DNA of 64,000 bases, taken from NCBI GenBank assembly GCA_913047675.1, contig CAJWTO010000003.1:6670-70669 (forward strand), written 5' to 3'. Numbering within the stretch: position 1 is the stretch's first letter; every line of letters begins with the position of its first letter. The notes beneath the pieces were generated by a model. It did no database searches and was not told where the DNA came from. It worked only from the letters and a program-made list of their open reading frames with translations. The DNA is from an uncultured Pseudomonadota bacterium (GTDB lineage: Bacteria; Pseudomonadota; Gammaproteobacteria; Ga0077536). A program made the translations under genes and the position numbers. Below, one piece after another: positions 31,094 through 56,099 of the stretch.

Positions 31094-33231
31094 TATAGAT
31101 CTCGCCTCAAAGTGTCGAATATTTCTGAATGTCGCTCGATCCATGCTTTGATATCGAATTTGGTAATCGCCCGGACTCGCGCCTCCTCCCCCATGTTTTT
31201 GGCGTTCTCTGCAATCTTTAACATCCCATAACCAATATCCTCACAAGTGGGAACATGAATCTCATTCCAATCTTCAGGGACAGCTAAGCCTATCCCTGCT
31301 GAACTTCCGACCAACTCACGTATGCCACCGCTGTCTGAAAATAAAATCGGTAGCCCGCTCGACATTGCCTCGATCACCGTGTTCGGGCAAGGATCAAGAT
31401 ATTTGGTAATCACGTACGCATCAGCACCTCTATAAATATCAGCAGCATTTTCTTGTGAATACTGTCCAACAAGGTCCACATGATCTTCTAACCCACACCG
31501 TTCAATTAAGATCTGGGTTCCTTTCAAATCTTCCACCCATCCTGCAATAATAAGTTTTGCATCCAATCCAGACTTCCTGGCTCTAGCCAAACCTTCAATC
31601 GTACTGCCCAACCGATACCCGAGATGCCTCCCAATTTTCCCTGTCACAAGAAACCTAAAACTTTGGCTTGAACGACTTGCTGCAGGACAAAAATAGCTCG
31701 TGTCTACAGCGTTATACAGAACTTCTCCGGGACCTGATCGATTCCCTAAAAACTTATCTGCAGAACGGCGGCAAAATTCAGATTGCCAGAACACGTAAGA
31801 GGCTTGGTGATAGGCCTCAGCCATGATTTTGTTTTGCGCCTCCCAGTCATCACCGAACCAACCTGGGTAAAAAACTCCATTTTGATTAAGTACGATTGGA
31901 ATTTTGCGGGCTTTGAGTGCAGACAAAGCCAACTTTGGAAGGTATGGAGCATTCGACAAAGAATAGACAATTCCGAATCGCCAACGGTGTTCTGGAAAGA
32001 ATTGCCGCAAACGCTTCACCTTCACTAGAGGCCCACCAAGATTTCCCGCTCTCGCTCCGCCATAAAAAACAGCGTGAGTAACTCGCCTAGGCAATGTCAA
32101 ACCTATCAAGACAAAAGAACAGCAAATTACTCTATATACGTGACGAATCAGTTTTTTTTGCCATGGATCAAGCTGAGTAAAATCACTAGTTTCGCGAAAT
32201 TTGGCCGGAAAACGAGATCCATATCTCACGACTCTTTCTTTCATAAGACAGACAAAACGTTTCATCAAATGAGACTCTAAAAGACAAAGCTTAACTAACG
32301 TAATTCGTTTAGGTTTAGCCTCACTATTAGTGACATCAGTCATAAATCGTAAATAATTCTTCGCCACAAAACTCATATTCGAAACACTGATCCGATTTCT
32401 ATAGGACTCCATATCTTCGGCGACAGTCTTAATACAATCGATCACATCCTCTACACCGTCAAAGAGTAGGCCTCCAGAGCCAACAAGTTCGGGATGCCCT
32501 CCACTGTTAAGCGCAACAGAAGGAAGCCCCGAAGCCAAGGCCTCGCAAAGCGCATTGGAGCACGGGTCGCAGCGACTAGCCGCGAGAAAAATATCGTGCT
32601 CTTGCAACTTAATAGCAAGCGCCGATGATGGATGCGGTGGCAATTGCTCAATATTGCGAAATTTTACAGGGCTATTCCCCACAAAGGTCATCTTGTAACG
32701 AGAGAAGTCTAGATTTCGATCTAAGAAATCTAGAGTATCAAAACCTTTATTCCAATTTTTAGACCAACTTACCGAAATAATTCGTATACGTTTGTCAATC
32801 GACTGATTGGGACCAGCTCGAAAGATGCTATTTGGAGCATTCAGGACCACTGCCGACAAAAGAGGTGGGGGCATGCCTAAACTTAAATTTGCTCGACGGC
32901 TGTACTCACTTTGAAATAGAACTCCGTCAGCGACCACCTTGCTGAACTCATGAATCAACTTGTCTAAATGTAGATCCTTTCCGCGATATCCGGAAATAGG
33001 ACCATCTATACGTTGCACGAAAGGTTTAAATGGTAGTCTCAATTTCCACCACATAACCCTTCGTGGTTCATTGAAACTATCAAAAAGTATCACATCGGCA
33101 TCGGTTGGAGAGTCAGTCCAATTACCATGCGCCTGCATCTCTTCACGAAGTGCTTTTAAAAACTGATTAGCTCCGCCCCACGGTCCCTCACGAAAACTAT
33201 ATAAAATATGTATTCGGATTTTACTCATCAA
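31093..33231 (-). CDS. Tandem two-module GT-B (GT4-like) glycosyltransferase
   Basis: 712 aa with two separate GT1/GT4 C-terminal signatures: CDPCSNALCEALASGLPSVALNSGGHPELV (first half) and LDPCPNTVIEAMSSGLPILFSDSGGIRELV (second half). Confidence 0.75.
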   Translation of the reverse strand: MMSKIRIHILYSFREGPWGGANQFLKALREEMQAHGNWTDSPTDADVILFDSFNEPRRVMWWKLRLPFKPFVQRIDGPISGYRGKDLHLDKLIHEFSKVVADGVLFQSEYSRRANLSLGMPPPLLSAVVLNAPNSIFRAGPNQSIDKRIRIISVSWSKNWNKGFDTLDFLDRNLDFSRYKMTFVGNSPVKFRNIEQLPPHPSSALAIKLQEHDIFLAASRCDPCSNALCEALASGLPSVALNSGGHPELVGSGGLLFDGVEDVIDCIKTVAEDMESYRNRISVSNMSFVAKNYLRFMTDVTNSEAKPKRITLVKLCLLESHLMKRFVCLMKERVVRYGSRFPAKFRETSDFTQLDPWQKKLIRHVYRVICCSFVLIGLTLPRRVTHAVFYGGARAGNLGGPLVKVKRLRQFFPEHRWRFGIVYSLSNAPYLPKLALSALKARKIPIVLNQNGVFYPGWFGDDWEAQNKIMAEAYHQASYVFWQSEFCRRSADKFLGNRSGPGEVLYNAVDTSYFCPAASRSSQSFRFLVTGKIGRHLGYRLGSTIEGLARARKSGLDAKLIIAGWVEDLKGTQILIERCGLEDHVDLVGQYSQENAADIYRGADAYVITKYLDPCPNTVIEAMSSGLPILFSDSGGIRELVGSSAGIGLAVPEDWNEIHVPTCEDIGYGMLKIAENAKNMGEEARVRAITKFDIKAWIERHSEIFDTLRRDL

Positions 33232-34132
33232 AAACCCAATTAATCAAACGTTCAGCCCATAATGACCGATCATATTCTTCTCTAACTTTCGTACAATCAA
33301 AAGTTTTAAATCGTAAAGCCTCTAGAGCCGCCTGAGGCGCGTCATCAAAATCCTCCAAAAAAGACATACCGGAATAATCTTTGGCAAGCAACTCGTATGA
33401 GGGCAGACGATTGCTAATAACAGGTACCCCTAGTGCCGCATAGACTAACGCTTTAAAAGAGCTATTATTTATATCGTAAGTAGAGTCCAGTTTCCGTGGC
33501 AAAAAAGCCACATCAACTTCAATTAATGCCGATGGAAAAGTTGCGTACATCCATGGGACAAAGCGATAGCGAAAAGGCAGCCGAGGTGGTTTTTCACTTA
33601 TGATCACCATGCGATCATCGAGGAATTCAGAATAACGACCAAGAAAACTCGCCTTCACCGAGACTCCTGACCAACTAAAAACTGGAGCATCAAGATTCAC
33701 ATCTTTTTTGTGCCCACGAAAATGAAGTAAATCTAACGGATCAGGCATAACGAAAACATTCTCACAAAACTGCTTGGCACTATTAGCAATCCCCTCCGTG
33801 GGAACACAAATACCATCGACAATACTCGCAATACCCCTTGAGGCATGCACCTGAAGAGGCGTCGAAGCCTTATGGGTTTCAAAATAATCTACACAAGTAT
33901 CCCAGTAGACACGTTTTGAAATAACCCGTAAGAATTTTATGAAACGCAAAGAATTATGTAGCATTCCGCGATGATAGATTGCAACGTCATATCTGCGAAA
34001 CGGATTATTAACAGAAACATCAACGCCAAGAGCTTTAAAACATGGGATTAGCTGCAAAGCCCTTATCCAAATGGCTGACTGCACTCGATCATAACTTCTG
34101 AACGGCGTAGGAATAAAAATTCCCAAACGCAT
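33221..34132 (-). CDS. Putative glycosyltransferase (GT-B-like, weak signal)
   Basis: 303 aa. The only recognisable element is a GT-B-like C-terminal stretch (FKALVYAALGVPVISNRLPSYELL). AAGAGG lies 9 nt upstream of the ATG. Confidence 0.4.
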   Translation of the reverse strand: MRLGIFIPTPFRSYDRVQSAIWIRALQLIPCFKALGVDVSVNNPFRRYDVAIYHRGMLHNSLRFIKFLRVISKRVYWDTCVDYFETHKASTPLQVHASRGIASIVDGICVPTEGIANSAKQFCENVFVMPDPLDLLHFRGHKKDVNLDAPVFSWSGVSVKASFLGRYSEFLDDRMVIISEKPPRLPFRYRFVPWMYATFPSALIEVDVAFLPRKLDSTYDINNSSFKALVYAALGVPVISNRLPSYELLAKDYSGMSFLEDFDDAPQAALEALRFKTFDCTKVREEYDRSLWAERLINWVFDE

Positions 34133-34452
34133 TAGTTAAAGCCTCTTTAATGATTTCATAATCTTACCTCCACGATATGACATGCCATCCCGAAGTGACC
34201 TCTTGATATTAGAAAATTAAACTTTTTCGAGAGACACATATATGGTTACCTTTTGTACTTAAATACTTTTTCTCTAAAACTCTGGCCACATGAAAGCTTT
34301 AAGATTAGATTGACTAAATTTTTAGCTTCCGTCAGCACTCCTATTAGTAATTAGTATTTTGACATCCATTAAATATTATCAATTTATAACTTCTGAAACG
34401 GCACGAGCTGCCGCTCATCAGCCTTGACAGCCAGTTGACTTTACTCTCCAAG

Positions 34453-34465
34453 CACGCTTGCCGCT
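34453..34465 (-). promoter_or_regulatory. Degenerate ops-like motif (AGCGGCAAGCGTG) inside the 654-bp intra-locus spacer
   Basis: The minus strand reads TTAGCGGCAAGCGTGC, against TGGCGGTAGCGTAC at the main ops site: same orientation, 2 substitutions plus a 1-nt insertion. It is followed about 30 nt downstream by an imperfect hairpin (34393-34421). Confidence 0.3.
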
Positions 34466-34786
34466 AACTTAACCCGCAAATAACTCGGTTCTTAGCAATC
34501 CTGTGAAATCGATGAGGCGATCTTCCGATTTAAAACTCTTACCTAATCACTGTCCACATTCCCTATGTCGATAAATTTCTTCTCAGTCAATTCGAAAAGC
34601 GCTCAAGAAAAGGGAGGCGAGTACTCTACGTTATGACAACTGGGTCAATATCAAAATACCTTAGTTTTATCATCCCGACCCGTCATACCTACTTTAATCA
34701 ATACTATCTAGATTCGATAACTAAACATTATTTATAAACGGAATTACGTCACCCCTATTCGCCCAAAGGAGATAAATCCATATGCA

Positions 34787-35743
34787 TCAATCCCAAGAGA
34801 ACGTCTCCACTGAATCAGTTAAAAGAGATTTTTTGTTATAAACGGTTAGCTTCACATTATTAAGTTGCATATATAGACCCCAGTCGCGAATAATTTCAAT
34901 TATTCCGTTGTTCACCGTGTTATGAGAATCTGAAGTATGTAATCCCCTAACTGTAACGTCCGAATGTATCTCACGATTTTCTTCTTTAGACCAGTTCAGT
35001 GTTTTGTCCTCAGGAACCCAAAAATATCTGTTGTCATATAAATCCACGCCAATTAAGACGATTTCTTTGTAACCCATCGCATAAGCGCAACTAATCGCCA
35101 TACATAGCGTGCCAGCACGCTGAACAAGACCAACATCAAGGTCCTTGTGTGGTCTCTTTCCAAATCTATCCGTGAAAAAACTATAAATTGATTTTTTCTG
35201 ATTCCACAATCGGTGGCCAACAATACTATTGGTATAACTTGAGGTTAACCCAAAAGGAAACAAGAATAACGTATCTTCTAGACATCGATTATCGTCTATC
35301 AAAGATATCGAGTAATCGGCATAAGGTCGCCATTTAAAAATTCCATCAACCGTCTCATATGCCGCTCTTATCAACAAGTAAGTGAAATTTATTTTTTTCA
35401 AGTGAAATGAGCCATTAAAGCCAAAAGAATCATGTCTTCTAATTTTCACCCATTCGGCTTCCGTTAGTTCATTCAGCGAACTTCCGGATCCAAAAATAAA
35501 TATACGATTCCCTGTTTTTCTTTGCTGTAGAGATTTCTTAGACACAAACTTATAACGTCGCTTATTAACCATATATAAGGCGAAAGATGCGAACGAAATA
35601 CGCAAAAGTCTCAACACAACGCTCACTGGCGTATTGAAAAACCACCAGATAACCAACTTAGCTGAGCCAAAAAAATTTAATATGAATCCCGCGCAAAAAT
35701 ATGCCAAATTAAATATAAAGCTCATTACTGGCACTTTTCCCAA
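34787..35743 (-). CDS. Membrane-anchored GT42/DUF115-like (Cst-II-like) putative nonulosonic-acid transferase
   Basis: 318 aa with N-terminal TM helices. IFIFGSGSSLNEL and RAGTLCMAISCAYAMGYKEIVLIGVDLYDNRYFW resemble, from my recollection, Cst-II AGNGPSL and ITSGVYMCAVAIALGYKEIYLSGIDFYQNGSSYAF. A His-containing segment (GLHTSDSHNT) follows. It overlaps the NeuB-like gene by 19 nt. Confidence 0.5.
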   Translation of the reverse strand: MGKVPVMSFIFNLAYFCAGFILNFFGSAKLVIWWFFNTPVSVVLRLLRISFASFALYMVNKRRYKFVSKKSLQQRKTGNRIFIFGSGSSLNELTEAEWVKIRRHDSFGFNGSFHLKKINFTYLLIRAAYETVDGIFKWRPYADYSISLIDDNRCLEDTLFLFPFGLTSSYTNSIVGHRLWNQKKSIYSFFTDRFGKRPHKDLDVGLVQRAGTLCMAISCAYAMGYKEIVLIGVDLYDNRYFWVPEDKTLNWSKEENREIHSDVTVRGLHTSDSHNTVNNGIIEIIRDWGLYMQLNNVKLTVYNKKSLLTDSVETFSWD

Positions 35744-36432
35744 TCGACTCTAAAAGCATTTATCATATTGAGCTCATCTGGCGTCATGCTACATGCATGG
35801 TCTGGGCCTGATGCTGATTTATCCAATGTTAAATGCTTCTCTAATACTCGTGATCCAAGCACGAATGAGGCACAAGCTGCGGTAATGCCTTGAGAATGAT
35901 CACTAAATCCGGCATAACGATTAAAATCCACCTCGAAAAGGCCAAGCTCGGAAAGCGGTGTAGGGTATTTTGAAACACAGTAGAGATAGTCGACTAATGC
36001 ATTATCGCTAATTTTTGGGAACTCATTATCGGTCCACATACCTAACGAAACAACAATAGGTTTTCCTGTAGCAACCACTTCTCTGATGAGATTTTTATCA
36101 GCTACAGATCGTGATGCAATTTTGTACCTTTTTACGTCAACATCCTCCAACCAATCAATACGCTCAATATCAAAGACTGACGCCATAAACTCAATTCCAA
36201 CTTTGTAACAATATTCAGCAAGACGGTAGACATCGTCTTTCGCTAGCTCCGTTAAACAGTTATATTCAAACCAGGGATTTTTTGATTTCGGTGGAAACAA
36301 TGCCTTAGCATCGTATAGTTGAAACTTAGCCACATCCGCACCTGAGTCCTTCGCTATCTTAATTAGTTGTTCCGCAACTCGCATGTCACCATTATGATTT
36401 TGGCCTATCTCTGCAATAATCTCAGTTTTCAT
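35725..36432 (-). CDS. NeuB-domain (sialic/nonulosonic acid synthase-like) protein lacking the C-terminal SAF domain
   Basis: 235 aa with AEIGQNHNGD, KFQLY, YKIASRS, GFSDHSQG and LEKHLTLDKSASGPDHACSMTPDEL motifs. The ORF ends about 20 aa after the GPDH motif, so there is no room for a SAF domain. Confidence 0.75.
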   Translation of the reverse strand: MKTEIIAEIGQNHNGDMRVAEQLIKIAKDSGADVAKFQLYDAKALFPPKSKNPWFEYNCLTELAKDDVYRLAEYCYKVGIEFMASVFDIERIDWLEDVDVKRYKIASRSVADKNLIREVVATGKPIVVSLGMWTDNEFPKISDNALVDYLYCVSKYPTPLSELGLFEVDFNRYAGFSDHSQGITAACASFVLGSRVLEKHLTLDKSASGPDHACSMTPDELNMINAFRVDWEKCQ

Positions 36433-38257
36433 TTTCTTTCATCCATAAATGCAACATAACAAAGCTGAATAATACATGTCCTGCTAGCTTAGCCGGGTCA
36501 TAGAGAATATTACGGGCATGCTTGTAAGCATGTGGACTAAGCAAACCCAATCTAGCTAATGGAGATACATCCGAGAATGTCTCGTCAAACAAATCGCTCC
36601 ACTCCCTCTTTAGCCAATGGTCGATCGGAACATTAAAACCATGTTTAGCGCGCGATACAAGATCGGAAGGTAATTTTGTAGAAAATGCCTTACGCAGTAC
36701 CCACTTTAATTGTCCATTTCGAATAAGCTGTTCCCATGGAAGCTGCGCCGCGAATTTTTGAACCGAGGGAGCTGCAAATGGAGCTCGGCCCTCTATAGAG
36801 AAGGCCATTGTCATTCGGTCTACTTTTGACAGCATTTCGTTTGGGAAATAGAACCTTCGGTCATTTCGAAGATAATCCAATGGCTCTTCGAATCTGTGTC
36901 CATCAAATAAACGAAGGGAGCTTCTAGACTCAATATCACGATGAAATAGTACTTTTTTTTCCTCCTCGCTCGCGTAATAGTGCCAGGCCCAAGCTCGCAA
37001 TTGATGTTTATATCCAGCCATTCTTCTTAATCTTTCGGAATCACTCTCATTTCCGTCCAGGTATCGCGAGATAACTCCTTTAGCAGATTGATTTGAAAAG
37101 CTGTCCGGGATCTTCGAATACCAAGAATAGCCGCCAAAGGCCTCATCAGCTCCATCTCCAGAAAGGAGGACCTTAACTCCTGCACTTTGGGCAACTCGGG
37201 CAATTGCAAGCACTCCTAACCCAGATGAAACCGCATAGGGTTGTCCAGCAGCCATTAGAAATCGAGGTAAAAGCTCACGAAAATGATTTGCTGTGACTCG
37301 AATGGTGGTGTGTCGAGTACCCAACTGGTTTGCGTACCTCTCAGCTAATACCGACTCATCCGAATAACCGTGATAAGGATCTGGTACGTCTTCGAAACCG
37401 ATACAGAAAGTGCGCAATTCCTTCAACTTTTCACTAGCTAGCTTACATACGATTGAGCTATCGAGTCCCCCACTCAGGAAGGCCCCTACAGGGACATCCG
37501 ATAGAAGGCGACTCTGGACCGCCTGACTTACTATCTCTCTTACAGAGGAAACCGCTTCATCATCAGATTTAAATGCAAAATTCGGTGTGGAAATATTGCT
37601 CTTAAATTCAAAAGCAACCTTCCCTTTACTTGATATCTCCAGACCCTCCCCTGGCATGATCGCGCGTATACTTTTATAAATAGTTGCTGGTTCTGGTACC
37701 CACAAGAAGCTCGGATAATCCCACAATGATTGGGTATCAATCTCACGCGATACCAATCCGCTAGCAAGCAAGCTAGGAATTTCTGATGAAAAAGCGATTC
37801 CTCCGTTCGATAGTTCACTAATATAGAGTGGCTTTTCACCTGGAAAATCACGAGCTAGTAAAAGAGTTTCCCTCTGTTTATCCCATAGTGCCACTGCGAA
37901 CATGCCATCGAGTCGTGCGAAAACACCACGGCCATATTTACGATAAAGGTGGCAAATAACTTCTCCGTCGCTATTGGTACGGAAGCGAACCCCATCTTTC
38001 TCTAACTCATCCCTGATCGAAGGTGAGTTGTAAATCTCACCGTTATAGAAAAGTACGACTTGACCGCTTTCATCATAGAGGGGTTGATCGCCCCCCTCGC
38101 AATCCAGAATACTTAATCGACGCATTCCTGCTTTATAGACATCACTGTCCCAATAACCTTCAGAATCAGGACCGCGGTGAATGAGTCGCGATACCATCTT
38201 TCCAACGACCCTATGCTCAGTCCCGTTTTTTGAGAAGATTCCTGCTATACCACACAT
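36422..38257 (-). CDS. Asparagine synthase (glutamine-hydrolysing) family amidotransferase, copy 2
   Basis: 611 aa with the Ntn nucleophile MCGIAG and the PP-loop FLSGGLDSS. Confidence 0.88.
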   Translation of the reverse strand: MCGIAGIFSKNGTEHRVVGKMVSRLIHRGPDSEGYWDSDVYKAGMRRLSILDCEGGDQPLYDESGQVVLFYNGEIYNSPSIRDELEKDGVRFRTNSDGEVICHLYRKYGRGVFARLDGMFAVALWDKQRETLLLARDFPGEKPLYISELSNGGIAFSSEIPSLLASGLVSREIDTQSLWDYPSFLWVPEPATIYKSIRAIMPGEGLEISSKGKVAFEFKSNISTPNFAFKSDDEAVSSVREIVSQAVQSRLLSDVPVGAFLSGGLDSSIVCKLASEKLKELRTFCIGFEDVPDPYHGYSDESVLAERYANQLGTRHTTIRVTANHFRELLPRFLMAAGQPYAVSSGLGVLAIARVAQSAGVKVLLSGDGADEAFGGYSWYSKIPDSFSNQSAKGVISRYLDGNESDSERLRRMAGYKHQLRAWAWHYYASEEEKKVLFHRDIESRSSLRLFDGHRFEEPLDYLRNDRRFYFPNEMLSKVDRMTMAFSIEGRAPFAAPSVQKFAAQLPWEQLIRNGQLKWVLRKAFSTKLPSDLVSRAKHGFNVPIDHWLKREWSDLFDETFSDVSPLARLGLLSPHAYKHARNILYDPAKLAGHVLFSFVMLHLWMKENEN

Positions 38258-38260
38258 GGC

Positions 38261-38935
38261 TTAAACATTTTGAAATTTCAAAAGATCTTTAATACCGAAG
38301 TGTCTGTTTCCCAACACCTTGACCTTAGCAACCACTTTTTGGTAATCCTCTAACGTATCTACAGTAAAAGCATCACTTTTCCTTTGCCATGACGTAGGAG
38401 GTAAAAACTGCTTTACCTGAAACCCAAGTTCAGTGCGATAAAAACGCAGGGTAAGGTGCTCCTTTTCCTCGTCTGTCATAAGTGGCCAAGCCGTTGCTAA
38501 AGTGTTCACAGAAAATACCTCGTAATCTATCCCAACAGGGAAAATACCTTTAGTGGTATACATATCAACATTTGATCCTGAATCCCATTGCGAGAGACAA
38601 TAGTCAAGACTTTGAGCGTCTACGAATGGGCAATCTCCTGTGATACGAACAATCCAACTCACACCAAGCTTACGAGCTACCGATAAGTAACGGCTGGCCA
38701 CGTCCATATAAGCGCCTCTGAAAACAGTTACTCCTGTTGTTGCTACTCGATCCGCGAGAATATCATCATCATTACGCTCACTAGTCGCAAAAACAACGGA
38801 GCCTCCCAGTTTGGTGTCACGAATACGATCAAGGAGGAATTCGATTAAGGGAACTCCCCCCAAATCTAAAAGCGCTTTTCCAGGCAGTCTAGTTGATCCC
38901 ATTCGAGCTGACACAACAGTAGCAATAGTACTCAT
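38261..38935 (-). CDS. SpsF/NeuA-family sugar-acid cytidylyltransferase
   Basis: 224 aa with the N-terminal nucleotide-binding loop VVSARMGSTRLPGKAL and RITGDCPFVD. Confidence 0.75.
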   Translation of the reverse strand: MSTIATVVSARMGSTRLPGKALLDLGGVPLIEFLLDRIRDTKLGGSVVFATSERNDDDILADRVATTGVTVFRGAYMDVASRYLSVARKLGVSWIVRITGDCPFVDAQSLDYCLSQWDSGSNVDMYTTKGIFPVGIDYEVFSVNTLATAWPLMTDEEKEHLTLRFYRTELGFQVKQFLPPTSWQRKSDAFTVDTLEDYQKVVAKVKVLGNRHFGIKDLLKFQNV

Positions 38936-40305
38936 ACGCCATCCAAAATATGCGCGATTTTCAGTTTCGTTTCTGAATCAATAAAGAAACTCTCCCCTTG
39001 TGACACAATAAAATTAATGGGGGACGGACCTACCAACGAGCCAGAGGCAAAGTTTTTGTTCTTTGTCGCCAAAGCAATATTCGCTTCACGATATACGTAA
39101 TCATGATCACTACGTAGACCACGCGCCGGGTTAACGGCCCGCAAACCGAATGACGTACGACAAAAAACCGGATCCTTTATTTCTTCCACGCCCATACTAC
39201 TGTCAGCGTCATTAAAAACCAAAGTATGTACTGCTTCCTCAAGAGATCCTAACGACACGAAAGGCGATGGAAGATAGCAAAGTGCTGTAACTCCTAAAGA
39301 TTTAGGGTCATACTGCTCTGCAATCCGAGCCAACGTTCCAGCGATATTTTTAGATCGAAGAGTCTCAGATGTATCCCGCTTAAAAAATTCAACACGTTTA
39401 TCCAAGAAACTTTTAATTGTTGGTAACACATCCTCCGTATCAGAGGCGACAATTACTTTATCAAATAAAGTTGAGCTTAAGCACATCTCTAGCTTCCTTC
39501 TAAGAAGGTTCTTACCATTAAGCTCGATAGACCAAAGATCAGGGTGAAAATCATAGTTCCTACGACATGGAATCACCGCCAAGATAGGCCGAAAAACATC
39601 TAGCTTCTTCGTTATTGCGTCCTTTTTTATTTGCCTTCTGGCAGCCAACATACGATGTGAGCTGTTTGTTAAATTCTTACCGTGCCTTCGATAATAAAAG
39701 AGGGGTAAATTGACATTCATCGCACGATGAGTGTGTCGAATTTTGGCCCAAACATCAAAGCCATCCTGTGCACCTAAGTCTTCGCGGTAGCCGCCAATCG
39801 ATTCCAGAACCGACTTCCGTATCAGAGTACATGCTCCGTTAGGAGGCATATCCGTCAAATGACTCGAGTCGAAAATCTTTTGTCTACGCTCATGAGAAAA
39901 AATCCCCCCTTCCTCATCAATCAGGTAGTAGTCGGGAAACACTAACGCAAGGTCTGCATGGCGTTCAATATAACTTAAAAGAACAAATAAAATATTCTCA
40001 TCGAATACGTCATCCCCATCGAGTCTGATTACATACTCACCACGACATTCGCGTAATACGAGATTTGCAACCGCCGGAAGACCAATTTTTGAGGTTTGAA
40101 ATATGCGAACTCGATGATCGTTTGCGTACAGTTGTATAACCTGCTGAGTTTCATCTGATGACCCGTCATCAATTAGGAGAAGCTCCCAATCTTCAAAGTG
40201 CTGACGTAATACACTTTCGATGGCCTCCTCTAAAAACCTTCCGTAATTGTGAGAAGCGATGTACACAGAAATCTTTGGCGATTTTTTTTGGTCTAACTCT
40301 GGCAT
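38932..40305 (-). CDS. Fusion protein: N-terminal GT2 glycosyltransferase + C-terminal degenerate cytidylyltransferase-like domain
   Basis: 457 aa. Residues 1 to about 225 carry the GT2 signature (ISVYIASHNYGRF...LLLIDDGSSD, RLDGDDV). The C-terminal ~220 aa starts ILAVIPCRRNYDFHPDLW and has a NeuA/SpsF-like layout, but the (A/S)RxGSxRxxxK loop is not conserved. Confidence 0.55.
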   Translation of the reverse strand: MPELDQKKSPKISVYIASHNYGRFLEEAIESVLRQHFEDWELLLIDDGSSDETQQVIQLYANDHRVRIFQTSKIGLPAVANLVLRECRGEYVIRLDGDDVFDENILFVLLSYIERHADLALVFPDYYLIDEEGGIFSHERRQKIFDSSHLTDMPPNGACTLIRKSVLESIGGYREDLGAQDGFDVWAKIRHTHRAMNVNLPLFYYRRHGKNLTNSSHRMLAARRQIKKDAITKKLDVFRPILAVIPCRRNYDFHPDLWSIELNGKNLLRRKLEMCLSSTLFDKVIVASDTEDVLPTIKSFLDKRVEFFKRDTSETLRSKNIAGTLARIAEQYDPKSLGVTALCYLPSPFVSLGSLEEAVHTLVFNDADSSMGVEEIKDPVFCRTSFGLRAVNPARGLRSDHDYVYREANIALATKNKNFASGSLVGPSPINFIVSQGESFFIDSETKLKIAHILDGV

Positions 40306-40307
40306 TG

Positions 40308-41240
40308 TTACGAATTCCAGTCTTTCAAAAAATGAACAGAATCATGGTGCCATCGCTCAAAGAAAGAAAGAACCTCAATTGGCTGATCCTTCTTAATTGT
40401 TATGGGCTCTGAATCCGGAACCTTCTCAGCTAAAATACAAAGAATGTCATTGTCCAAATAACGATTAGATGCGACCGCTCGGAATCCTGCTTTTTCTAAA
40501 GCAGTTTGTAGCGAGTTAGCACTGAATCTAAAACAATGGCTATCAGCTGGGTTTTTAGAAAAATAGGTAAATAGTGGCTTCTTGAAGGGAACCAGTATCC
40601 TGCTTCCGGTGGCAACGAGGACTCTTCCGCCCACAGGCAACAGTTGATTGGCACCATTCAGCATATCCATACATGATAAACAATTCTCTAGGGTCCACAT
40701 GATTGTTACCACATCTGCTTGATATGCCTTTCCTTCCGGACTAACTAAAAACTCCTCGATAGTCCCCGCGTAGGTTGGGATTTTAAATTTATTAAGCCGT
40801 GCACAATTTTTTTCAGACGGCTCAATACCAAACGGAGAAATACCGTATTGATCTTTAAGATACTTCAAACTGAAGCCCTCTCCCGCTCCGATATCACACA
40901 GTTTCTTGCCCACAAGATCTATTTGAGAAGCTAAAAACTCCGATACAAACGTTTGCCGTGCCATCATTGCAGGATTTTTCACTGCTGTATAAACATCACC
41001 GTAAATTTCCTCGCTCCATACTCTCGCAATTTCATCGGACGTTCGCCGAGACCGCACATATACAAACCCGCAGTTACCACATATATGAATTGGTTGATTC
41101 CCCGTGTAAATTCGCGAGTAAGGGATTTCAATCGGATCATCCGATCCGCAAAGATCGCAACAATAGTCAGTGTATCCAGGTGATTGACTAACCTGAGAAT
41201 CGTTGTTGAGAGCGTCTTGATTATCATGCATTACAGTCAC
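40308..41240 (-). CDS. SAM-dependent methyltransferase with N-terminal 4-Cys zinc ribbon
   Basis: 310 aa. CDLCGS...CGNCGF, then LCDIGAGEGFSL (SAM motif I). Confidence 0.7.
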   Translation of the reverse strand: MTVMHDNQDALNNDSQVSQSPGYTDYCCDLCGSDDPIEIPYSRIYTGNQPIHICGNCGFVYVRSRRTSDEIARVWSEEIYGDVYTAVKNPAMMARQTFVSEFLASQIDLVGKKLCDIGAGEGFSLKYLKDQYGISPFGIEPSEKNCARLNKFKIPTYAGTIEEFLVSPEGKAYQADVVTIMWTLENCLSCMDMLNGANQLLPVGGRVLVATGSRILVPFKKPLFTYFSKNPADSHCFRFSANSLQTALEKAGFRAVASNRYLDNDILCILAEKVPDSEPITIKKDQPIEVLSFFERWHHDSVHFLKDWNS

Positions 41241-41266: not shown

Positions 41267-42013
41267 TTATGACCGGACATTCAGTCCACGCCTCGAGAGA
41301 TATTGCTTTGCACTTTTAATGCTCGTTTCAGTAAAGTGGTATACGTTTGTAGTTGCTACCGCATCCGCACCAGCTACCATGAAACCATCAGCAAAGTCCT
41401 TCCACTTTCCAGCACCCCCACATACGATAACCGGAATTTTCACACTTTTTACCACGTCAGCATTCAACTTATTGTCGTACCCCTCAAGTGACCCGTCTTT
41501 TTCAACGGCGGTCAGCAATATCTCCCCTGCCCCTAACCCTTCAACCCGCTGAGCTAACTCCTCTGGTTGCCATTGTGTGGGATGTCTTCCGCAGTTCTTA
41601 TAAACACGGTAAACACCACTACTTTCTTTACGCACATCTATCGAAACCACAACAGATTGGCTTCCGAATCGCTTAGCTGCCTTTGTAATTAGCTCCGGCT
41701 GCTCTATGGCTTGCGTGTTTATAGCAACCTTGTCAGCCCCTAGATCGAGATAGCGCTTTACATCATCAAGGTCCCTCACTCCGCCTCCAACGCACATTGG
41801 TACAAAACAATTTTTACTGAATTTCGCCACTACGGATGAAAACAGCTCCGGATCGCGCCGCTCCGGACGGGTAACATCAAGCAAGACAATTTCATCAATT
41901 GACCATGCATCCACGAAATTTACGGTATACCGATAGTCTGGAATAAATGTCTTCGTTCGAAAAAGTATACCGTCGTTAAATGTAAGTACGGTAATAACCC
42001 TCTTTCTCAACAT
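41267..42013 (-). CDS. HisF-paralogue cyclase-like subunit (WbuZ-like) of a glycan amidotransferase
   Basis: 248 aa with RVITVLTFNDGILFRTKTF, VGGGVRDLDDVKRYLDLGADKVAINT and VCGGAGKW motifs. It is embedded with hisH-like and wbuX-like genes, not with his genes. Confidence 0.8.
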   Translation of the reverse strand: MLRKRVITVLTFNDGILFRTKTFIPDYRYTVNFVDAWSIDEIVLLDVTRPERRDPELFSSVVAKFSKNCFVPMCVGGGVRDLDDVKRYLDLGADKVAINTQAIEQPELITKAAKRFGSQSVVVSIDVRKESSGVYRVYKNCGRHPTQWQPEELAQRVEGLGAGEILLTAVEKDGSLEGYDNKLNADVVKSVKIPVIVCGGAGKWKDFADGFMVAGADAVATTNVYHFTETSIKSAKQYLSRRGLNVRS

Positions 42014-42633
42014 GTAGCAACAACACTCTCTGCAAAATTTCGCAGCATCATAAGGCCTTGGTGCTGACTCTTTTCTGGATGAAACTGAGTCCCGAATATA
42101 TTTTTCTTATGTATCGAAGCAACAAATTTTTGGCCATGATTGGAAAAAGCGGAAATATTTTCCCGATCTACACACTCCATGTGGTAACTGTGCGTGAAAT
42201 AAAACAATGTCTGCTCGGGTACGCCCGAAAAGATCGGATTGTCGTTAACTCTAATACAATCATTCCAGCCCACATGAGGAATGCGTATATGTGGTTCGGT
42301 CTGCTGAAGCCGAACCACTCTTGCTTTCACCCAACCCAGACCAGTCGAACAACCAAACTCCTCCCCTTCACTTGCCATCAACTGAAATCCGAGACAAATT
42401 CCTAGTATTGGCCGCGCCTGTTCAAGCACTAGTTCATTTAACAAATCTAATAAATCTAGCTGCTGCAGATTTTTCATACCATCTGGGAAGGCGCCGACTC
42501 CAGGAAGTATGAGCCCAGTAGCATCTCTAATTTGCGCTTTATCCGAGGTACATCGATACTGAATTTCTAGGCGCTCAAAGGCGGCGCAAATCGAACGAAG
42601 ATTCCCCAAGCCATAATCAACGATTGTCAACAT
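42007..42633 (-). CDS. HisH-paralogue glutamine amidotransferase subunit (WbuY-like)
   Basis: 208 aa with MLTIVDYGLGNLRS, the catalytic Cys in GICLGFQLM and FHPEKS. Confidence 0.82.
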   Translation of the reverse strand: MLTIVDYGLGNLRSICAAFERLEIQYRCTSDKAQIRDATGLILPGVGAFPDGMKNLQQLDLLDLLNELVLEQARPILGICLGFQLMASEGEEFGCSTGLGWVKARVVRLQQTEPHIRIPHVGWNDCIRVNDNPIFSGVPEQTLFYFTHSYHMECVDRENISAFSNHGQKFVASIHKKNIFGTQFHPEKSQHQGLMMLRNFAESVVATC

Positions 42634-42642
42634 TTTAAGAAC

Positions 42643-43791
42643 TCAACGAACCGGGTTTCTCAAAGTCCAAGAAGACCCATTTTTTTTCCATATTTCTGGA
42701 TTTCGGTGTTGGTCGACGATTTTTGAAAACTCGTCCATTGTCAAATCCAGATATTCTAGAACCTCATCGAAGTGCTCATAGCAAAATTCATCATCATATT
42801 TGCGAGCGAGATCAAGGCCTTCCTGTCTGGTCATATGGTCATTTTGTATAAGCCTACTAGCATCACGCACAGCGCGCCCAAAGCCGAATTTTATGAACTG
42901 CATGTAGTAATACAAGTTATCAATCTTATCGTCTAGGCTGTCGTAATTAGTAAAAGTGCTGTCAGTACGTCCTTTTTGATTAGTACGGAAATCAATCTTG
43001 TCTTTTATATACTGATAGTTCTCATACATAGACCAACGAAAAAAATACGAATAGTAATAAGCTTTTACGCCCACACTAGCGACCTGCTCTGAAGACGGAT
43101 AAACGTAAGCGTTTAAATCTTTCTCCGAGACTACATCATCAACCCAGTTTCGTGGATCATCCCCAACATAATTTTCTATTATTTCTGTAAAGTCTCTCGT
43201 GCGTCGATGCTCTTCGCTTAAAACTCTTCCCCCATACTCACTTTCTCCATGTTCTGCATAAAATACAACTGGAATTTGATATTTAACAGCCACCGTTACC
43301 GGAACAGAATTGATGCCCGCGTCCCATGCGACCTTTGGATTTCCACGCTCGATAAAGAACCGCTTCGCCAAATGGCGCAGAACTTTCTGATTGGCTCGGA
43401 AAAACAAGTGATCGAAACCGAGTTGGATCATTTCTTCACGATTGTGGTGTCCAATCTCGTTTGGAATCATGGGAGAGTAGGTGACGAGAAGGGGGTTTAA
43501 GCCAAACTCAAACTTCAGCTTATGAGCTATCGCGCTGCTGTCTTTCCCACCGCTCCATGGAACCACGCAATCATACTGTGCGTCGCTTCGCGCGCGCATG
43601 GGCTCTATAAGCCTGAGAAATTCGTGCTTACGTGATTCCCAATCGGTCTTGTTCTTCTCCTCTGCATTATGACAAGCATTACAGACACCTTCGCCATCGA
43701 AAACAACCCGCGGACGACTGTTCGGTGTTAAACAATACTTACAAAACGCAACATCACTTGAATTCATCTTGATCCAAAAATAATAAATCAA
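42643..43791 (-). CDS. N-acetyl-sugar amidotransferase (WbuX/WbpG/PseA family, PP-loop)
   Basis: CKYCLTPNSRPRVVFDGEGVCNACHN zinc ribbon and the PP-loop PWSGGKDSS. The Met at 43767 (MNSSDVAFCKYC) is the more likely start. Confidence 0.8.
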   Translation of the reverse strand: MIYYFWIKMNSSDVAFCKYCLTPNSRPRVVFDGEGVCNACHNAEEKNKTDWESRKHEFLRLIEPMRARSDAQYDCVVPWSGGKDSSAIAHKLKFEFGLNPLLVTYSPMIPNEIGHHNREEMIQLGFDHLFFRANQKVLRHLAKRFFIERGNPKVAWDAGINSVPVTVAVKYQIPVVFYAEHGESEYGGRVLSEEHRRTRDFTEIIENYVGDDPRNWVDDVVSEKDLNAYVYPSSEQVASVGVKAYYYSYFFRWSMYENYQYIKDKIDFRTNQKGRTDSTFTNYDSLDDKIDNLYYYMQFIKFGFGRAVRDASRLIQNDHMTRQEGLDLARKYDDEFCYEHFDEVLEYLDLTMDEFSKIVDQHRNPEIWKKNGSSWTLRNPVR

Positions 43792-55088: not shown

Positions 55089-56099
55089 CTAATTTTTATA
55101 ATAATCCAAATACCAAGATACAAAATTTTTAACGCCCGTATCAATCGAAGTAGTTGGCCTATATCCGAAATCATTTGTTAGCGCACTAACATCTGCATGA
55201 GTGTCAGGCACATCACCTGGCTGCAATGGTAAAAGCTCATATCGCGCTTCCATCCCCAAAGAATCTTCAATCGCTTGGATGTACCGTAATAACTCCACTG
55301 GCTTACTATTGCCAATATTGTGAACACACCAAGGAGCGCTACTTGACCCCGGGTCTGGGGAGGCTCCGGACCATGTAGAGCTCGACGACGCGGGCCTATC
55401 AATCACCCTCACAACCCCCTCAACTATATCGTCGATGTAAGTAAAATCTCGTTTGTGTTTCCCATAATTGAACACTTGTATTGTTTTGCCCTCAAGAATG
55501 GCTTTGGTAAATTTAAATAAGGCCATGTCCGGGCGACCCCAAGGGCCATAAACAGTGAAGAAACGTAGTCCGGTGGTGGGTAAACTGTATAGATGACTGT
55601 AAGCATGAGCCATTAATTCATTACTCTTTTTACTAGCAGCATACAATGACAATGGGTGGTTTACGCTTTGATTGATAGAAAAAGGCATCTGAGTATTAGC
55701 GCCATAAACGCTTGAACTGCTCGCGTAAACTAAGTGGCCGACGCCATTGTGTCTACACCCTTCTAAAACATTTATGAAGCCAACAATGTTACTTTCAATA
55801 TATGCATGTGGATTTTCTATTGAATAGCGAACACCAGCTTGGGCTGCGAGGTTAACGACACAATCAGGCCTATATTCTTTAAAGGCTCTTGTGACTTCAT
55901 CTCGGTCTGCTATGTCCATACGCATATGGTCGTAATGCGTGTGCGAGAGATTTCTTGCTAATCTAGCTTCCTTGAGATCGGGATCATAATAATTATTATG
56001 ATTATCCATTCCCAATACGACGTCTCCACGCTTCAAGAGAGACGATACTAGTTGGGCGCCAATAAAGCCGGAAGCTCCGGTCACCAAAATTCTTTTCAA
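55089..56099 (-). CDS. UDP-glucuronate 4-epimerase (Cap1J/LpsL/WbnF type)
   Basis: 336 aa with [14 protein letters not shown] and YAASKKSNE. The N-terminal region [17 protein letters not shown] is typical of UDP-GlcA epimerases. There is a 4-nt overlap with ugd. Confidence 0.8.

Follow-up and report, generated by a model that had tools for sequence, protein, structure and literature searches.

Results

Organisation of the locus

The region described here is a stretch of a single unbroken operon within a Wzx-dependent surface-polysaccharide locus of the window (the whole stretch of DNA analysed, 64,000 nucleotides). The four genes on which the first-pass annotation was built (CTP3, AsnB1, NeuBs and an ORF here called GT42L; Table 1) were all found in an ORF check, on the minus strand and at the coordinates first given for them. 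The genes overlap at junctions by 4, 11 and 1 nt or are separated by gaps of 2-3 nt. Terminator prediction gave no candidate at the gene junctions or downstream of the module, and the sole terminator-like match lies within the AsnB1 coding sequence.

Table 1. Genes of the ulosonic acid-type region and its surroundings in the window.
Feature	Length (aa)	Position	Strand	Description
AsnB2		27532-29481		second AsnB, in the assembly block
u303	303	33221..34132	-	conserved partner of GT42L in the glycan-assembly block
GT42L	312	34787..35725	-	N-terminal helical hairpin and DUF115/Maf- and GT42-like domain; candidate ulosonic acid transferase
NeuBs	235	35725..36432	-	SAF-less NeuB-family PEP-aldose condensing enzyme, TIM barrel only
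AsnB1		36422..38257	-	glutamine-dependent AsnB-type amidotransferase
CTP3		38261..38935	-	SpsF/NeuA/KdsB-superfamily cytidylyltransferase; presumed CMP-ulosonic acid synthetase
GT2::CTP-like fusion		38932..40305	-	family-2 glycosyltransferase with a cytidylyltransferase-fold domain, changed nucleotide loop
Methyltransferase		40308..41240	-	Zn-ribbon and class I methyltransferase (Methyltransf_23, Pfam); frequent cassette accessory
WbuX/HisH/HisF		41267..43791	-	amidotransferase triad (acetamidino formation); frequent neighbour of NeuB clusters

NeuBs belongs to a SAF-less lineage

NeuBs matches PF03102 with 172.5 bits over profile positions 1-226 of 241. All four motifs reported for it earlier (AEIGQNHNGD, GFSDHS, EKHLTLD and GPDH) are in place, and the protein ends 23 aa beyond GPDH. 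The claimed lack of a SAF domain holds as well, as Pfam finds the NeuB domain only and this architecture is conserved. NCBIfam scores (TIGR03569, 187 against a cut-off of 400; TIGR03586, 153 against 340) fall short of the equivalog cut-offs curated for NeuB and PseI, at roughly half their values. Relatives of 230-250 aa with 50-90% identity occur in at least 8 phyla. More than 120 clusters of 230-249 aa have 59-90% identity, and 43 of the 50 best representatives at 50% identity measure 200-290 aa, while the nearest SAF-bearing relatives recovered share only 30-37% identity. The family alignment has 64 invariant columns, including E8, K36, Q38, H179, E198, H200 and D211. The AF2 model (pLDDT 95) is a complete 8-stranded TIM barrel, closest to the structure 6NCS (TM 0.92, rmsd 2.1 A).

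The protein is 100 aa short of the characterised NeuB, PseI and LegI enzymes, and its gene could be taken for a recent truncation or pseudogene of an ordinary NeuB. This origin is refuted by the conservation data and we regard it as extremely improbable: close relatives are all of equal length with a mean column identity of 71% and invariant catalytic residues, the identical protein is found on 33 contigs of several sources, and 6NCS is a solved SAF-less structure. A frameshifted SAF remnant was not found either; GT42L begins at the NeuBs stop codon, leaving no space for one, and a six-frame search of the whole genome (a MAG, 88% complete) gave no SAF match at E <= 0.1. NeuBs is thus complete and not truncated, and belongs to a large lineage of SAF-less NeuB proteins.

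A mobile four-gene cassette

The conserved unit is a horizontally mobile cassette of AsnB1, NeuBs, the GT2::CTP fusion and CTP3. In 30 of 40 species loci an AsnB orthologue (42-67% identity) immediately precedes the short NeuB, GT2::CTP orthologues (44-61% identity) are found in 27 of the 40, mostly directly after NeuBs, and CTP3 is present in about 30. This synteny extends over Gammaproteobacteria, Rhodoferax, Bradyrhizobium, Desulfobacterota, Omnitrophota, Ignavibacteria, Bdellovibrionota and Pelagibacteraceae, and our literature search found no paper on the cassette. The borders of the module had originally been drawn too narrowly, leaving out the GT2::CTP fusion although it is a core member.

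CTP3 matches CTP_transf_3 (PF02348) with 90 bits (E 2.4e-25) and passes no NCBIfam equivalog; its canonical loop ARxGSxRLPGK is conserved among the 37 orthologues and paralogues aligned. The proposal of a synthase and CMP-activation module of ulosonic or nonulosonic type is supported, and the module is intact. In the fusion protein, Pfam places Glycos_transf_2 at residues 13-169 and CTP_transf_3 at residues 261-368, and residues 242-451 match positions 1-216 of the PseF model. Here the canonical loop is replaced by IPCR(R/K)xYDFxPDLW, which is kept in 27 of 28 aligned sequences. The fusion is a second candidate transferase.

Accessory genes recur around the cassette. A 70%-identity orthologue of the neighbouring methyltransferase adjoins it in L001/L008, methyltransferases follow CTP3 in L003, and methyltransferase clusters are represented at 8 of 36 cassette loci. 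WbuX (TIGR03573, 334 bits in the window, with GATase and His_biosynth domains in the triad) occurs at 11 of the 36. The triad is also found in two NeuB+SAF clusters, L006 and L093, which carry GT42L homologues.

The amidotransferase coupled to NeuBs

In AsnB1 a GATase_7 domain is joined to an Asn_synthase domain (TIGR01536, 423 bits; cut-off 267), and the protein has both an N-terminal Cys (MCGIAG) and the PP-loop motif SGGLDSS. It shares these traits and its setting in a glycan operon with AsnB-type sugar amidotransferases (WbpS-like, and the EPS amidotransferase TIGR03108), in which the Ntn-glutaminase and PP-loop synthetase are likewise combined and Cys2 and SGGxDS are intact. What sets AsnB1 apart from them is its tight and specific coupling to a NeuB-family gene, an association for which we found no published description. 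The 11-nt overlap indicates that AsnB1 and NeuBs are translationally coupled, and given the frequency of the upstream position the link is not accidental.

AsnB1 may amidate the sugar product of the cassette, with a uronic acid as an equally possible target. In a possible, though clearly less favoured, alternative AsnB1 would stand outside the ulosonic acid chemistry, merely travelling in the same operon, and would act on a hexuronic acid in the repeat unit, amidating GalA to GalAN in a WbpS-like manner. Consistent with this, the gene immediately preceding AsnB1 in L002/L009, L003/L004, L029, L043 and L020 encodes an SDR of the UDP-GlcA/GlcNAcA 4-epimerase type, in some cases accompanied by Ugd, and that of L002/L009 is 70% identical to the product of 55089-56099 in the window. 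AsnB paralogues are also common in EPS loci (TIGR03108, 378 bits), and 10 of the 40 cassette loci do without AsnB1. However, AsnB2, which differs from AsnB1 and shares 65% identity between loci, would already serve a uronamide from the assembly block of the window, L007, L094 and L091, and the stop of AsnB1 and the start of NeuBs overlap at most loci even where the remaining gene order is shuffled.

GT42L as candidate transferase

The ORF of 318 aa described earlier exists, but its start is probably the ATG at 35725 and not the TTG at 35743, since the cluster members and closest homologues are 312 aa long; the overlap with NeuBs is then 1 nt (TAATG). N-terminal TM helices had also been proposed. 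Kyte-Doolittle windows of 19 residues gave borderline values (1.68 and 1.62) and the family as a whole does not retain this hydrophobicity, so that membrane anchoring is weakly supported.

The segments resembling Cst-II, GSGSSL and MGYKEIVLIGVDLY, were both found, and the Cst-II sequence at the aligned place is LGYKEIYLSGIDFY, as the first-pass annotation gave it. The GT42 and DUF115 profiles themselves are matched below the curated thresholds (PF01973, 23 bits against 34.6), and within the family 24 of 26 members match PF01973 and 5 match PF06002. Searched against the PDB, the family profile matches only Cst-I/Cst-II (E 0.0015-0.02), and the top Foldseek matches of the AF2 model (pLDDT 94.5) are MptE (8sd5), Maf (5mu5) and ST8SiaIII (5bo7). 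Members of the family lie beside a NeuB gene in all seven contexts seen, with both SAF-less and SAF-bearing synthases, which makes a role as ulosonic acid transferase likely. The downstream u303 has no Pfam or NCBIfam match and is 60-63% identical to its counterparts in L006, L092, L094 and L026, which likewise lie downstream of GT42L homologues. GT42L occurs in 3 of 45 cassette loci and is therefore locus-specific, not a part of the cassette as first thought.

With two candidates the transferase assignment is ambiguous. It seems unlikely that GT42L acts, in the manner of MptE, as a kinase or pyrophosphokinase on small molecules, or as a transferase with a different donor, with the GT2::CTP fusion as the real ulosonic acid transferase. 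The best Foldseek match is indeed a kinase, the archaeal HPPK MptE (E 1.4e-4, with TM of only 0.39-0.43), the Pfam scores are low, and the family is missing from 42 of the 45 loci, while nearly all carry the GT2 fusion. On the other hand, GT42 sialyltransferases are the only sequence-profile matches in the PDB, the top fold matches also include Maf and ST8SiaIII, the invariant GSGxS, GxDLY and HxT align with the donor-site and His188 regions of Cst-II, and every context of the family is a NeuB cluster. GT42L is a distant DUF115/Maf- and GT42-like protein and likely a ulosonic acid transferase.

Substrate supply

As the first-pass annotation held, no NeuC/PseG/LegG-type hydrolysing enzyme accompanies these genes: this genome (88% complete, so that absences are not absolute) gave no SAF, second NeuB, NeuC/LegG or PseG, and three other carriers (G002, Rhodoferax; G004, Bradyrhizobium; G005) likewise lack a second NeuB, NeuC/LegG and PseG. 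The sole Epimerase_2 gene, which had been called CapG-like, passes the model for non-hydrolysing WecB (score 245, cut-off 210) and fails that for NeuC (69, cut-off 236). The substrate supply is therefore non-canonical, and the aldose would be a common metabolite or be released by a cassette enzyme.

Discussion

The cassette genes are intact, conserved, syntenic and of recognised fold, and the canonical supply genes are missing. Of the original interpretation, the synthase and CMP module, the SAF-less architecture and the non-canonical supply stand, while the module borders have been extended and the membrane anchor is weakly supported.

NeuBs has the same TIM-barrel fold (TM 0.81-0.89) as NeuB, LegI, PseI and SpsE (PF03102 plus SAF; 1XUU, 2WQP, 8H2C, 1VLI) and shares the motifs AEIGxNHNG, KFQ, GxSDH, EKH and GxDH, so that the catalytic Glu/His residues and the binding of PEP and metal are predicted to be retained. 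Unlike these enzymes, it has several shorter barrel loops (202 residues span 226 profile positions) and neither linker nor SAF. In NeuB of N. meningitidis, the SAF residue Arg314 is needed for catalysis. The PDB entries 4IPI/4IPJ are R314A/K variants of this enzyme. NeuBs, without linker and SAF, has no counterpart of Arg314, so that substrate binding in a SAF-less enzyme must follow another mode, or the chemistry itself may differ. SAF-less NeuB proteins as such have already been noted (PMC8208679). The solved example, 6NCS, is a 285-290-residue 'N-acetylneuraminic acid synthetase' of Leptospira borgpetersenii from structural genomics and, like NeuBs, is too short for SAF; with 27% identity the two are not of the same subfamily, and we found no function or product reported for it in the literature.

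In the proposed route, NeuBs, a metal-dependent TIM barrel with all NeuB catalytic residues, would condense PEP with an aldose to a 3-deoxy-2-ulosonic acid, as expected from the family chemistry, and CTP3 would convert this product to its CMP ester. The sugar would then be transferred onto the repeat unit, at this locus perhaps most likely by GT42L; the GT2 fusion may be the transferase where GT42L is missing, or may add the adjacent sugar, and its altered cytidylyl-binding domain may recognise the CMP-sugar. The conserved coupling suggests that AsnB1 might amidate a carboxylate of this branch, on the ulosonic acid or a precursor.

The Maf enzymes of DUF115 use CMP-activated Pse, Leg, Neu5Ac and Kdo as donors, and their structures are related to that of Cst-II (bioRxiv 10.1101/2020.06.03.131540). 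Maf (PF01973; 5MU5), GT42 Cst-I/Cst-II (2P2V, 1RO7) and GT42L all have a single Rossmann-like domain, and the motifs GSGxSL and GYKEIxLxGxDxY and a later His of GT42L align with the Cst-II donor site, its catalytic residues being putative. Maf genes, too, are linked to NeuB clusters. In GT42L the N-terminal helical hairpin replaces the flagellin-binding domains of Maf, and the gene lies in a Wzx-type polysaccharide locus, in contrast to the flagellar or LOS setting of Maf and Cst.

An ordinary Kdn (or Neu5Ac) module is a rather improbable alternative, in which NeuBs would condense PEP with mannose, Man-6-P, ManNAc or ManNAc-6-P, CTP3 would form CMP-Kdn or CMP-Neu5Ac, the end product would be an already known sugar, and the lack of SAF would be without functional meaning. 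If the aldose is a common metabolite, dedicated precursor genes need not travel with the cassette, and none is conserved with it. The CMP-Kdn route of Bacteroides thetaiotaomicron (BT1713-1715) requires a dedicated Kdn-9-P phosphatase. A HAD phosphatase replaces AsnB beside NeuBs in the variant locus L090, but this is the only one of 45 loci where a HAD gene adjoins NeuBs. In Serratia marcescens KL1/KL2 a minimal neuA-neuB pair without neuC, at the start of the capsule variable region, suffices for Kdn capsule synthesis (PMC9000132), which resembles the cassette in having synthase and cytidylyltransferase without a NeuC-type enzyme. However, the Serratia NeuB is a 746-aa fusion (2241-bp ORF) with an isomerase-like domain, and both Kdn routes lack AsnB and the GT2::cytidylyltransferase-like fusion. 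Kdn requires no amidotransferase, yet AsnB1 is coupled at three quarters of the 40 loci, and neither the N-acetyl-sugar amidotransferases of the WbuX type nor the formyltransferase and deacetylase at L094 make sense for the nitrogen-free Kdn.

Taken as a whole, the data are best explained, with fair probability, by a mobile four-gene cassette for synthesis, CMP activation, transfer and perhaps amidation of a ulosonic acid. The pathway is of a known type, of which the cassette is an uncharacterised variant, and in this marine bacterium the intact cassette around the SAF-less NeuB most likely makes, activates and attaches an acidic sugar.

A complete NeuB barrel and no SAF domain

The four abutting minus-strand ORFs described in the first-pass annotation were recovered at exactly the coordinates reported there (see the table). 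As had also been claimed, the NeuB-domain ORF (NeuBs, 235 aa) carries the NeuB domain alone (PF03102, 172.5 bits against a cut-off of 22.1, profile positions 1-226 of 241). All of the reported motifs (AEIGQNHNGD, GFSDHS, EKHLTLD and GPDH) were found, with the stop 23 residues past GPDH. In alignments against solved NeuB-family proteins, NeuBs covers residues 31-277 of SpsE (385 aa) and 17-267 of PseI (349 aa), so the terminus of NeuBs is the terminus of the barrel. The AlphaFold model (AF2, pLDDT 95) is a complete eight-stranded barrel with a terminal helix as closure. The catalytic and metal-binding residues of the NeuB family are the Glu of AEIG, the Lys and Gln of KFQ, the His of SDH, the Glu and His of EKH and the Asp of GPDH; those of NeuBs align with the same motifs in 1VLI and 8H2C, and E8, K36, Q38, H179, E198, H200 and D211 are invariant across 26 orthologues.

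Coordinates of the features discussed (window positions unless a contig is named)
Feature	Position	Strand	Description
AsnB2	27532-29481		second AsnB, 649 aa
u303	33221-34132	-	303-aa protein
Spacer	34133-34786		654 bp, ORF-free, between GT42L and the next gene
Promoter-like match	34382-34353		weak, in the spacer
GT42L	34787-35725	-	DUF115/Maf- and GT42-like protein, 312 aa
NeuBs	35725-36432	-	SAF-less NeuB, 235 aa
AsnB1	36422-38257	-	AsnB-type amidotransferase
CTP3	38261-38935	-	stand-alone cytidylyltransferase
GT2::CTP	38932-40305	-	GT2 fused to a cytidylyltransferase-like domain
CTP_transf_3 match	G000:C3:71897-72196		window's own genome, just past the high end of the window
CTP_transf_3 match	G000:C89:1051-1332		window's own genome
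CTP_transf_3::Aminotran_3	L093:2391-4418		fusion, 675 aa
Stand-alone SAF ORF	L093:8715-8993		92 aa
AsnB-less cassette	L090:7738-13046		variant gene order
Cassette and flanks	L002:12706-16705		Rhodoferax, Logan
Cassette and flanks	L089:1611-8148		unrelated Logan contig

Characterised NeuB, PseI and LegI enzymes carry a C-terminal antifreeze-like (SAF) domain, whereas NeuBs is a barrel alone and falls below both NCBIfam equivalogs (TIGR03569 NeuB_NnaB, 187.5 against 399.65; TIGR03586 PseI, 152.6 against 340.25). A solved SAF-less structure, 6NCS, has a TM of 0.92 to the NeuBs model. No SAF domain was found in the ORF itself or in a six-frame search of the whole assembly (a MAG of 2.15 Mb, 88% complete), and the frameshifted SAF remnant considered earlier for 34787-35760 was not there, as the stop codon of NeuBs is the start of the next ORF (TAATG). 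A pseudogene or frameshifted remnant is thus ruled out by the abutting next gene, the empty six-frame search and the kept length, and the same search gave no candidate for a separate SAF protein acting in trans in this genome. A stand-alone SAF ORF was seen on another contig (L093), directly upstream of a GT42-like homologue; the NeuB of that contig is itself SAF-bearing, and the same cluster holds a CTP_transf_3::Aminotran_3 fusion.

In characterised NeuB, PseI and LegI the SAF domain gives Arg314 to the active site of the partner subunit, and this residue is essential in Neisseria meningitidis NeuB, so NeuBs must close its active site differently. The R314A/K variant structures 4IPI and 4IPJ were among the matches in the structural comparison of NeuBs. 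A partner protein such as AsnB1, the amidotransferase encoded next to it, is one possible way of closing the site.

The short NeuB as a family

The short NeuB, judged by its sequence relatives, is a conserved family and no accident of one locus. A search of 5.8 billion proteins gave over 120 clusters with lengths of 230-249 aa that are 59-90% identical to NeuBs, with sources including Rhodoferax, Desulfobulbaceae and Planctomycetes, and an alignment of 26 short NeuBs has a mean column identity of 71% and 64 invariant columns that include every catalytic motif. When 50%-identity representatives were searched exhaustively, a length of 200-290 aa was found for 43 of the 50 best matches, and the canonical NeuB lengths became the commonest class only at ranks 101-150. 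Most of the next-best relatives (30-37% identity; 28 loci checked) have an LKSPG-type SAF tail, about half have a cytidylyltransferase fused, and all except one interrupted frame carry some 80-130 extra C-terminal residues.

Among the GTDB species genomes, orthologues with at least 50% identity were found in 40 loci that span Gamma-, Beta- and Alphaproteobacteria, Desulfobacterota, Omnitrophota, Ignavibacteria, Acidobacteriota, Bdellovibrionota and Planctomycetota, together with one Pelagibacteraceae SAG. The gene was absent from all 80 genomes examined within the order, six of which share the genus, which argues that it belongs to an accessory, horizontally acquired cassette. To judge from the names of proteins clustering with its RF1 and from Tara sources, the organism of the window is a marine Burkholderiales MAG. 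The complete genome of Nitratidesulfovibrio sp. HK-II (NZ_AP036014.1) holds seven NeuB-domain genes, including two exactly duplicated pairs, one 730-aa fusion and a short NeuB, and four NeuC-type genes. In a survey of 13,941 NulO synthases in UniProt, 30% were without SAF, mostly from environmental bacteria and with no functional data (PMC8208679), and our literature search found no known product for any SAF-less NulO synthase.

A four-gene cassette

The content of the cassette was defined from Pfam-annotated contexts of unrelated metagenomes and from a tblastn survey of the 40 species loci, and the two agree. An AsnB1 orthologue (42-67% identity) lies directly upstream of the short NeuB in 30 of the 40 loci, usually overlapping it, an orthologue of GT2::CTP of about 450 aa (44-61% identity) is present in 27, and a stand-alone CTP_transf_3 gene in about 30. 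The genes occur as AsnB-NeuB-GT2::CTP-CTP3 in Rhodoferax and many others and as GT2::CTP-CTP3-AsnB-NeuB in the window and in L007, L008 and L091, with the AsnB-NeuB adjacency kept in both orders. When every ORF was clustered all against all, no further family was found in more than one third of the loci; DegT, SDR and WbuX each reached 11 of 36. The first-pass annotation had thus named four real ORFs but drawn the boundary of the module wrongly, as its interval (34787-38935) cuts off a core member, GT2::CTP. The genes of the locus are shown to be an intact, co-transcribed set: junctions in the window are overlaps of 4, 11 and 1 nt or gaps of 2-3 nt, catalytic motifs are all kept in NeuBs, AsnB1, CTP3 and the GT2 domain, and no terminator-like site was found at the gene junctions or after the module, the single match lying inside AsnB1.

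Two variants of the surroundings were observed. One locus (L090) has no AsnB and reads CTP_transf_3 - Methyltransf_21 - HAD_2 - short NeuB (65% identity) - GT2::CTP - CTP_transf_3. In two others (L002 and L089) the flanks of the cassette resemble the O-methyl-phosphoramidate pathway of Campylobacter, with genes for a PPDK_N/PEP-utilizers protein, a Peptidase_C26/GATase, an NTP_transferase, an APS_kinase-like protein and methyltransferases.

CTP3 is a clear CTP_transf_3 protein (PF02348, 90 bits against 22.6, E 2.4e-25) with the ARxGSxRLPGK signature retained and the nucleotide loop (Arg...Lys) SARMGSTRLPGKAL kept in orthologues. It meets no NCBIfam equivalog threshold (KdsB, PseF), so its substrate is not defined by a family model. 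In the domain fused to GT2 this signature is replaced by IPCR(R/K)xYDFxPDLW (residues about 240-265), kept in 27 of 28 aligned sequences. Because the replacement loop is itself conserved, the domain appears re-purposed and not decaying, which suggests a new ligand-binding function. No description of a GT2::cytidylyltransferase fusion was found in the literature search. Two weak CTP_transf_3 matches elsewhere in the genome lie within open frames of 460-480 aa and may be additional fusions of this kind.

Substrate supply and the role of AsnB1

The earlier observation that no NeuC-, PseG- or LegG-type hydrolysing enzyme is encoded nearby holds for the whole MAG (88% complete), which has one NeuB gene and one Epimerase_2 gene; the latter fails the NeuC model (TIGR03568, 69 against 236) and passes the non-hydrolysing WecB model (245 against 210). 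In Rhodoferax saidenbachensis, a Bradyrhizobium MAG and a further proteobacterial MAG the short NeuB is the only NeuB, NeuC/LegG (TIGR03568) is absent from all three, and PseG (TIGR03590) had no match at E <= 0.001 in these or in the window's genome. Since there are carriers without NeuC, PseG or a second NeuB, the cassette is independent of the textbook Neu, Leg and Pse precursor steps. The FnlA-like, cupin, Epimerase_2, DegT and GNAT genes were considered as a hidden Leg/Pse-type supply for NeuBs, and this is unsupported: the epimerase is probably non-hydrolysing, to judge by its sequence scores, and FnlA (0/40 cassette loci) and Epimerase_2 (1/40) do not travel with the cassette. A HAD phosphatase likewise does not look like a cassette member, as a HAD-motif ORF adjoins the short NeuB gene in only 1 of 45 loci, the variant without AsnB; a housekeeping KdsC-type enzyme encoded elsewhere could stand in for a dedicated sugar-acid phosphate phosphatase. 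The aldose for NeuBs is either a common metabolite or a product released by a cassette protein. WbuX/HisH/HisF triads adjoin many cassettes, and in L094 a formyltransferase and a deacetylase are encoded directly upstream of the NeuBs orthologue (72% identity), associations that hint at a nitrogen-bearing sugar rather than Kdn.

AsnB1 is a full AsnB-type protein (PF13537, PF00733 and TIGR01536 all above their cut-offs, TIGR01536 with 423 bits) carrying MCGIAG, with the N-terminal nucleophile Cys, and the PP-loop SGGLDSS. No paper that connects NeuB with an AsnB-type enzyme or asparagine synthase came up in the literature search. Amidation by AsnB1 could belong to the ulosonic-acid branch, and the main rival is that it serves uronamide formation instead: several loci have a UDP-GlcA-epimerase-like SDR, sometimes with Ugd, ahead of AsnB1, but a second, different AsnB is already present in the assembly block of the window and of related loci. 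This second protein, AsnB2, is a member of the glycan-assembly block; it has 65% identity to the AsnB at the end of L094 and 35% to AsnB1. An AsnB of its length occupies the same position in L007, and the L007 and L094 proteins each follow a GT2::methyltransferase fusion.

GT42L and the glycan-assembly block

The last of the four ORFs, GT42L, had been given a TTG start at 35743 (318 aa, 19-nt overlap); the ATG at 35725 is preferred, as 312 aa is also the length of its nearest homologues and of the other members of its cluster. Its reported likeness to the sialyltransferase Cst-II was partly upheld. The family profile, searched against the PDB, matched only Cst-I (E 0.0015) and Cst-II (E 0.008-0.02), but curated GT42 and DUF115 thresholds are not reached: PF01973 (MptE-like/DUF115) gives 23.1 bits against 34.6 and is matched, below threshold, by 24 of 26 family members, and PF06002 (GT42) was not reported for GT42L at E <= 0.1, with 5 of 26 members matching (best E 0.031). 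By sequence, the relationship to GT42 is one of remote homology, not membership. In Cst-II, His188 is catalytic and Tyr156 and Tyr162 bind phosphate. The invariant GSGxS, GFN, GxDLY and HxT of the family coincide with donor-site motifs of Cst-II; in the HMM alignment DLY falls on DFY156, and the invariant H268-x-T270 sits two residues off His188. The AF2 model (pLDDT 94.5) finds in Foldseek the archaeal MptE kinase 8SD5 (E 1.4e-4) and Maf 5MU5 (E 2e-3), both with probability 1.00 and a TM of about 0.4, and human ST8SiaIII is also among the best matches with a modest TM. Cst-II was not among the top 50, so the resemblance to it comes from the sequence profile and motifs. Maf enzymes are transferases for Pse, Leg, Neu5Ac and Kdo, and the donor site of their DUF115 domain has a known likeness to that of Cst-II (bioRxiv 10.1101/2020.06.03.131540). 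Membrane anchoring, also proposed earlier, is plausible, as two N-terminal helices are hydrophobic enough to pass the Kyte-Doolittle TM threshold in GT42L, but this is not a conserved feature of the family.

The strongest evidence on GT42L as a candidate ulosonic-acid transferase is its context. The family is small, at 25 clusters, and takes in a hypothetical protein of Ca. Methylopumilus universalis; in all seven neighbourhoods that could be read the homologue lies within a NeuB cluster, with a short NeuB in the window, L007, L026 and L094 and with a canonical NeuB+SAF pathway in L006, L092 and L093. Only 3 of 45 cassette loci carry it, which places GT42L in the glycan-assembly block, outside the cassette. 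Five of the seven neighbourhoods have u303 a few genes after it, ahead of GT4 genes; u303 has no Pfam or NCBIfam match and is 60-63% identical across the window, L006, L092, L094 and L026. GT42L and u303 are a conserved assembly block paired with different NeuB types. Simple scans of the spacer downstream of GT42L found no terminator-like site and one promoter-like match.

Proposed pathway and significance

It is proposed that NeuBs would condense PEP with an aldose, that CTP3 would form the CMP ester of the product, and that GT42L and/or the GT2 fusion would transfer the activated sugar into a Wzx-dependent repeat unit, with AsnB1 possibly amidating a carboxylate of the ulosonic-acid branch; Wzx, an initiating transferase and GT4s are encoded in the same locus. 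The earlier interpretation as an activated ulosonic or nonulosonic acid branch with a non-textbook synthase and supply is thereby kept in part, the independent supply standing and the limits of the module not. We read the cassette as an uncharacterised but widespread variant within the CMP-ulosonic-acid pathway type; it does not amount to a new kind of system. Minimal neuA-neuB modules in Serratia likewise lack neuC and make Kdn, although their NeuB, unlike NeuBs, is a different, fused protein (PMC9000132). We consider it unlikely that AsnB1 and the SAF-less NeuB act as a pair, the former perhaps replacing SAF as a cap, and make an undescribed class of sugar. Such a sugar would be a charge-neutral carboxamide of a 3-deoxy-2-ulosonic acid, or else an ulosonic acid for which the aldose is amidated and derived from a uronic acid, and the glycosyltransferase handling it would recognise the CMP-sugar through its fused, re-purposed cytidylyltransferase domain.

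Nonulosonic acids and related keto-acid sugars influence how phages, grazers and immune systems recognise a bacterial surface, and their pathways are predicted on the paradigm of NeuB with SAF. Here one SAF-less lineage lies at the centre of a compact cassette that crosses phyla and works with none of the textbook precursor enzymes. With the small DUF115/GT42-like family, the Maf/Cst transferases would gain a branch of polysaccharide type. The identity of the product would give meaning to thousands of annotations as 'N-acetylneuraminate synthase family protein', and could reveal a new sugar or a new mode of closing the NeuB active site.
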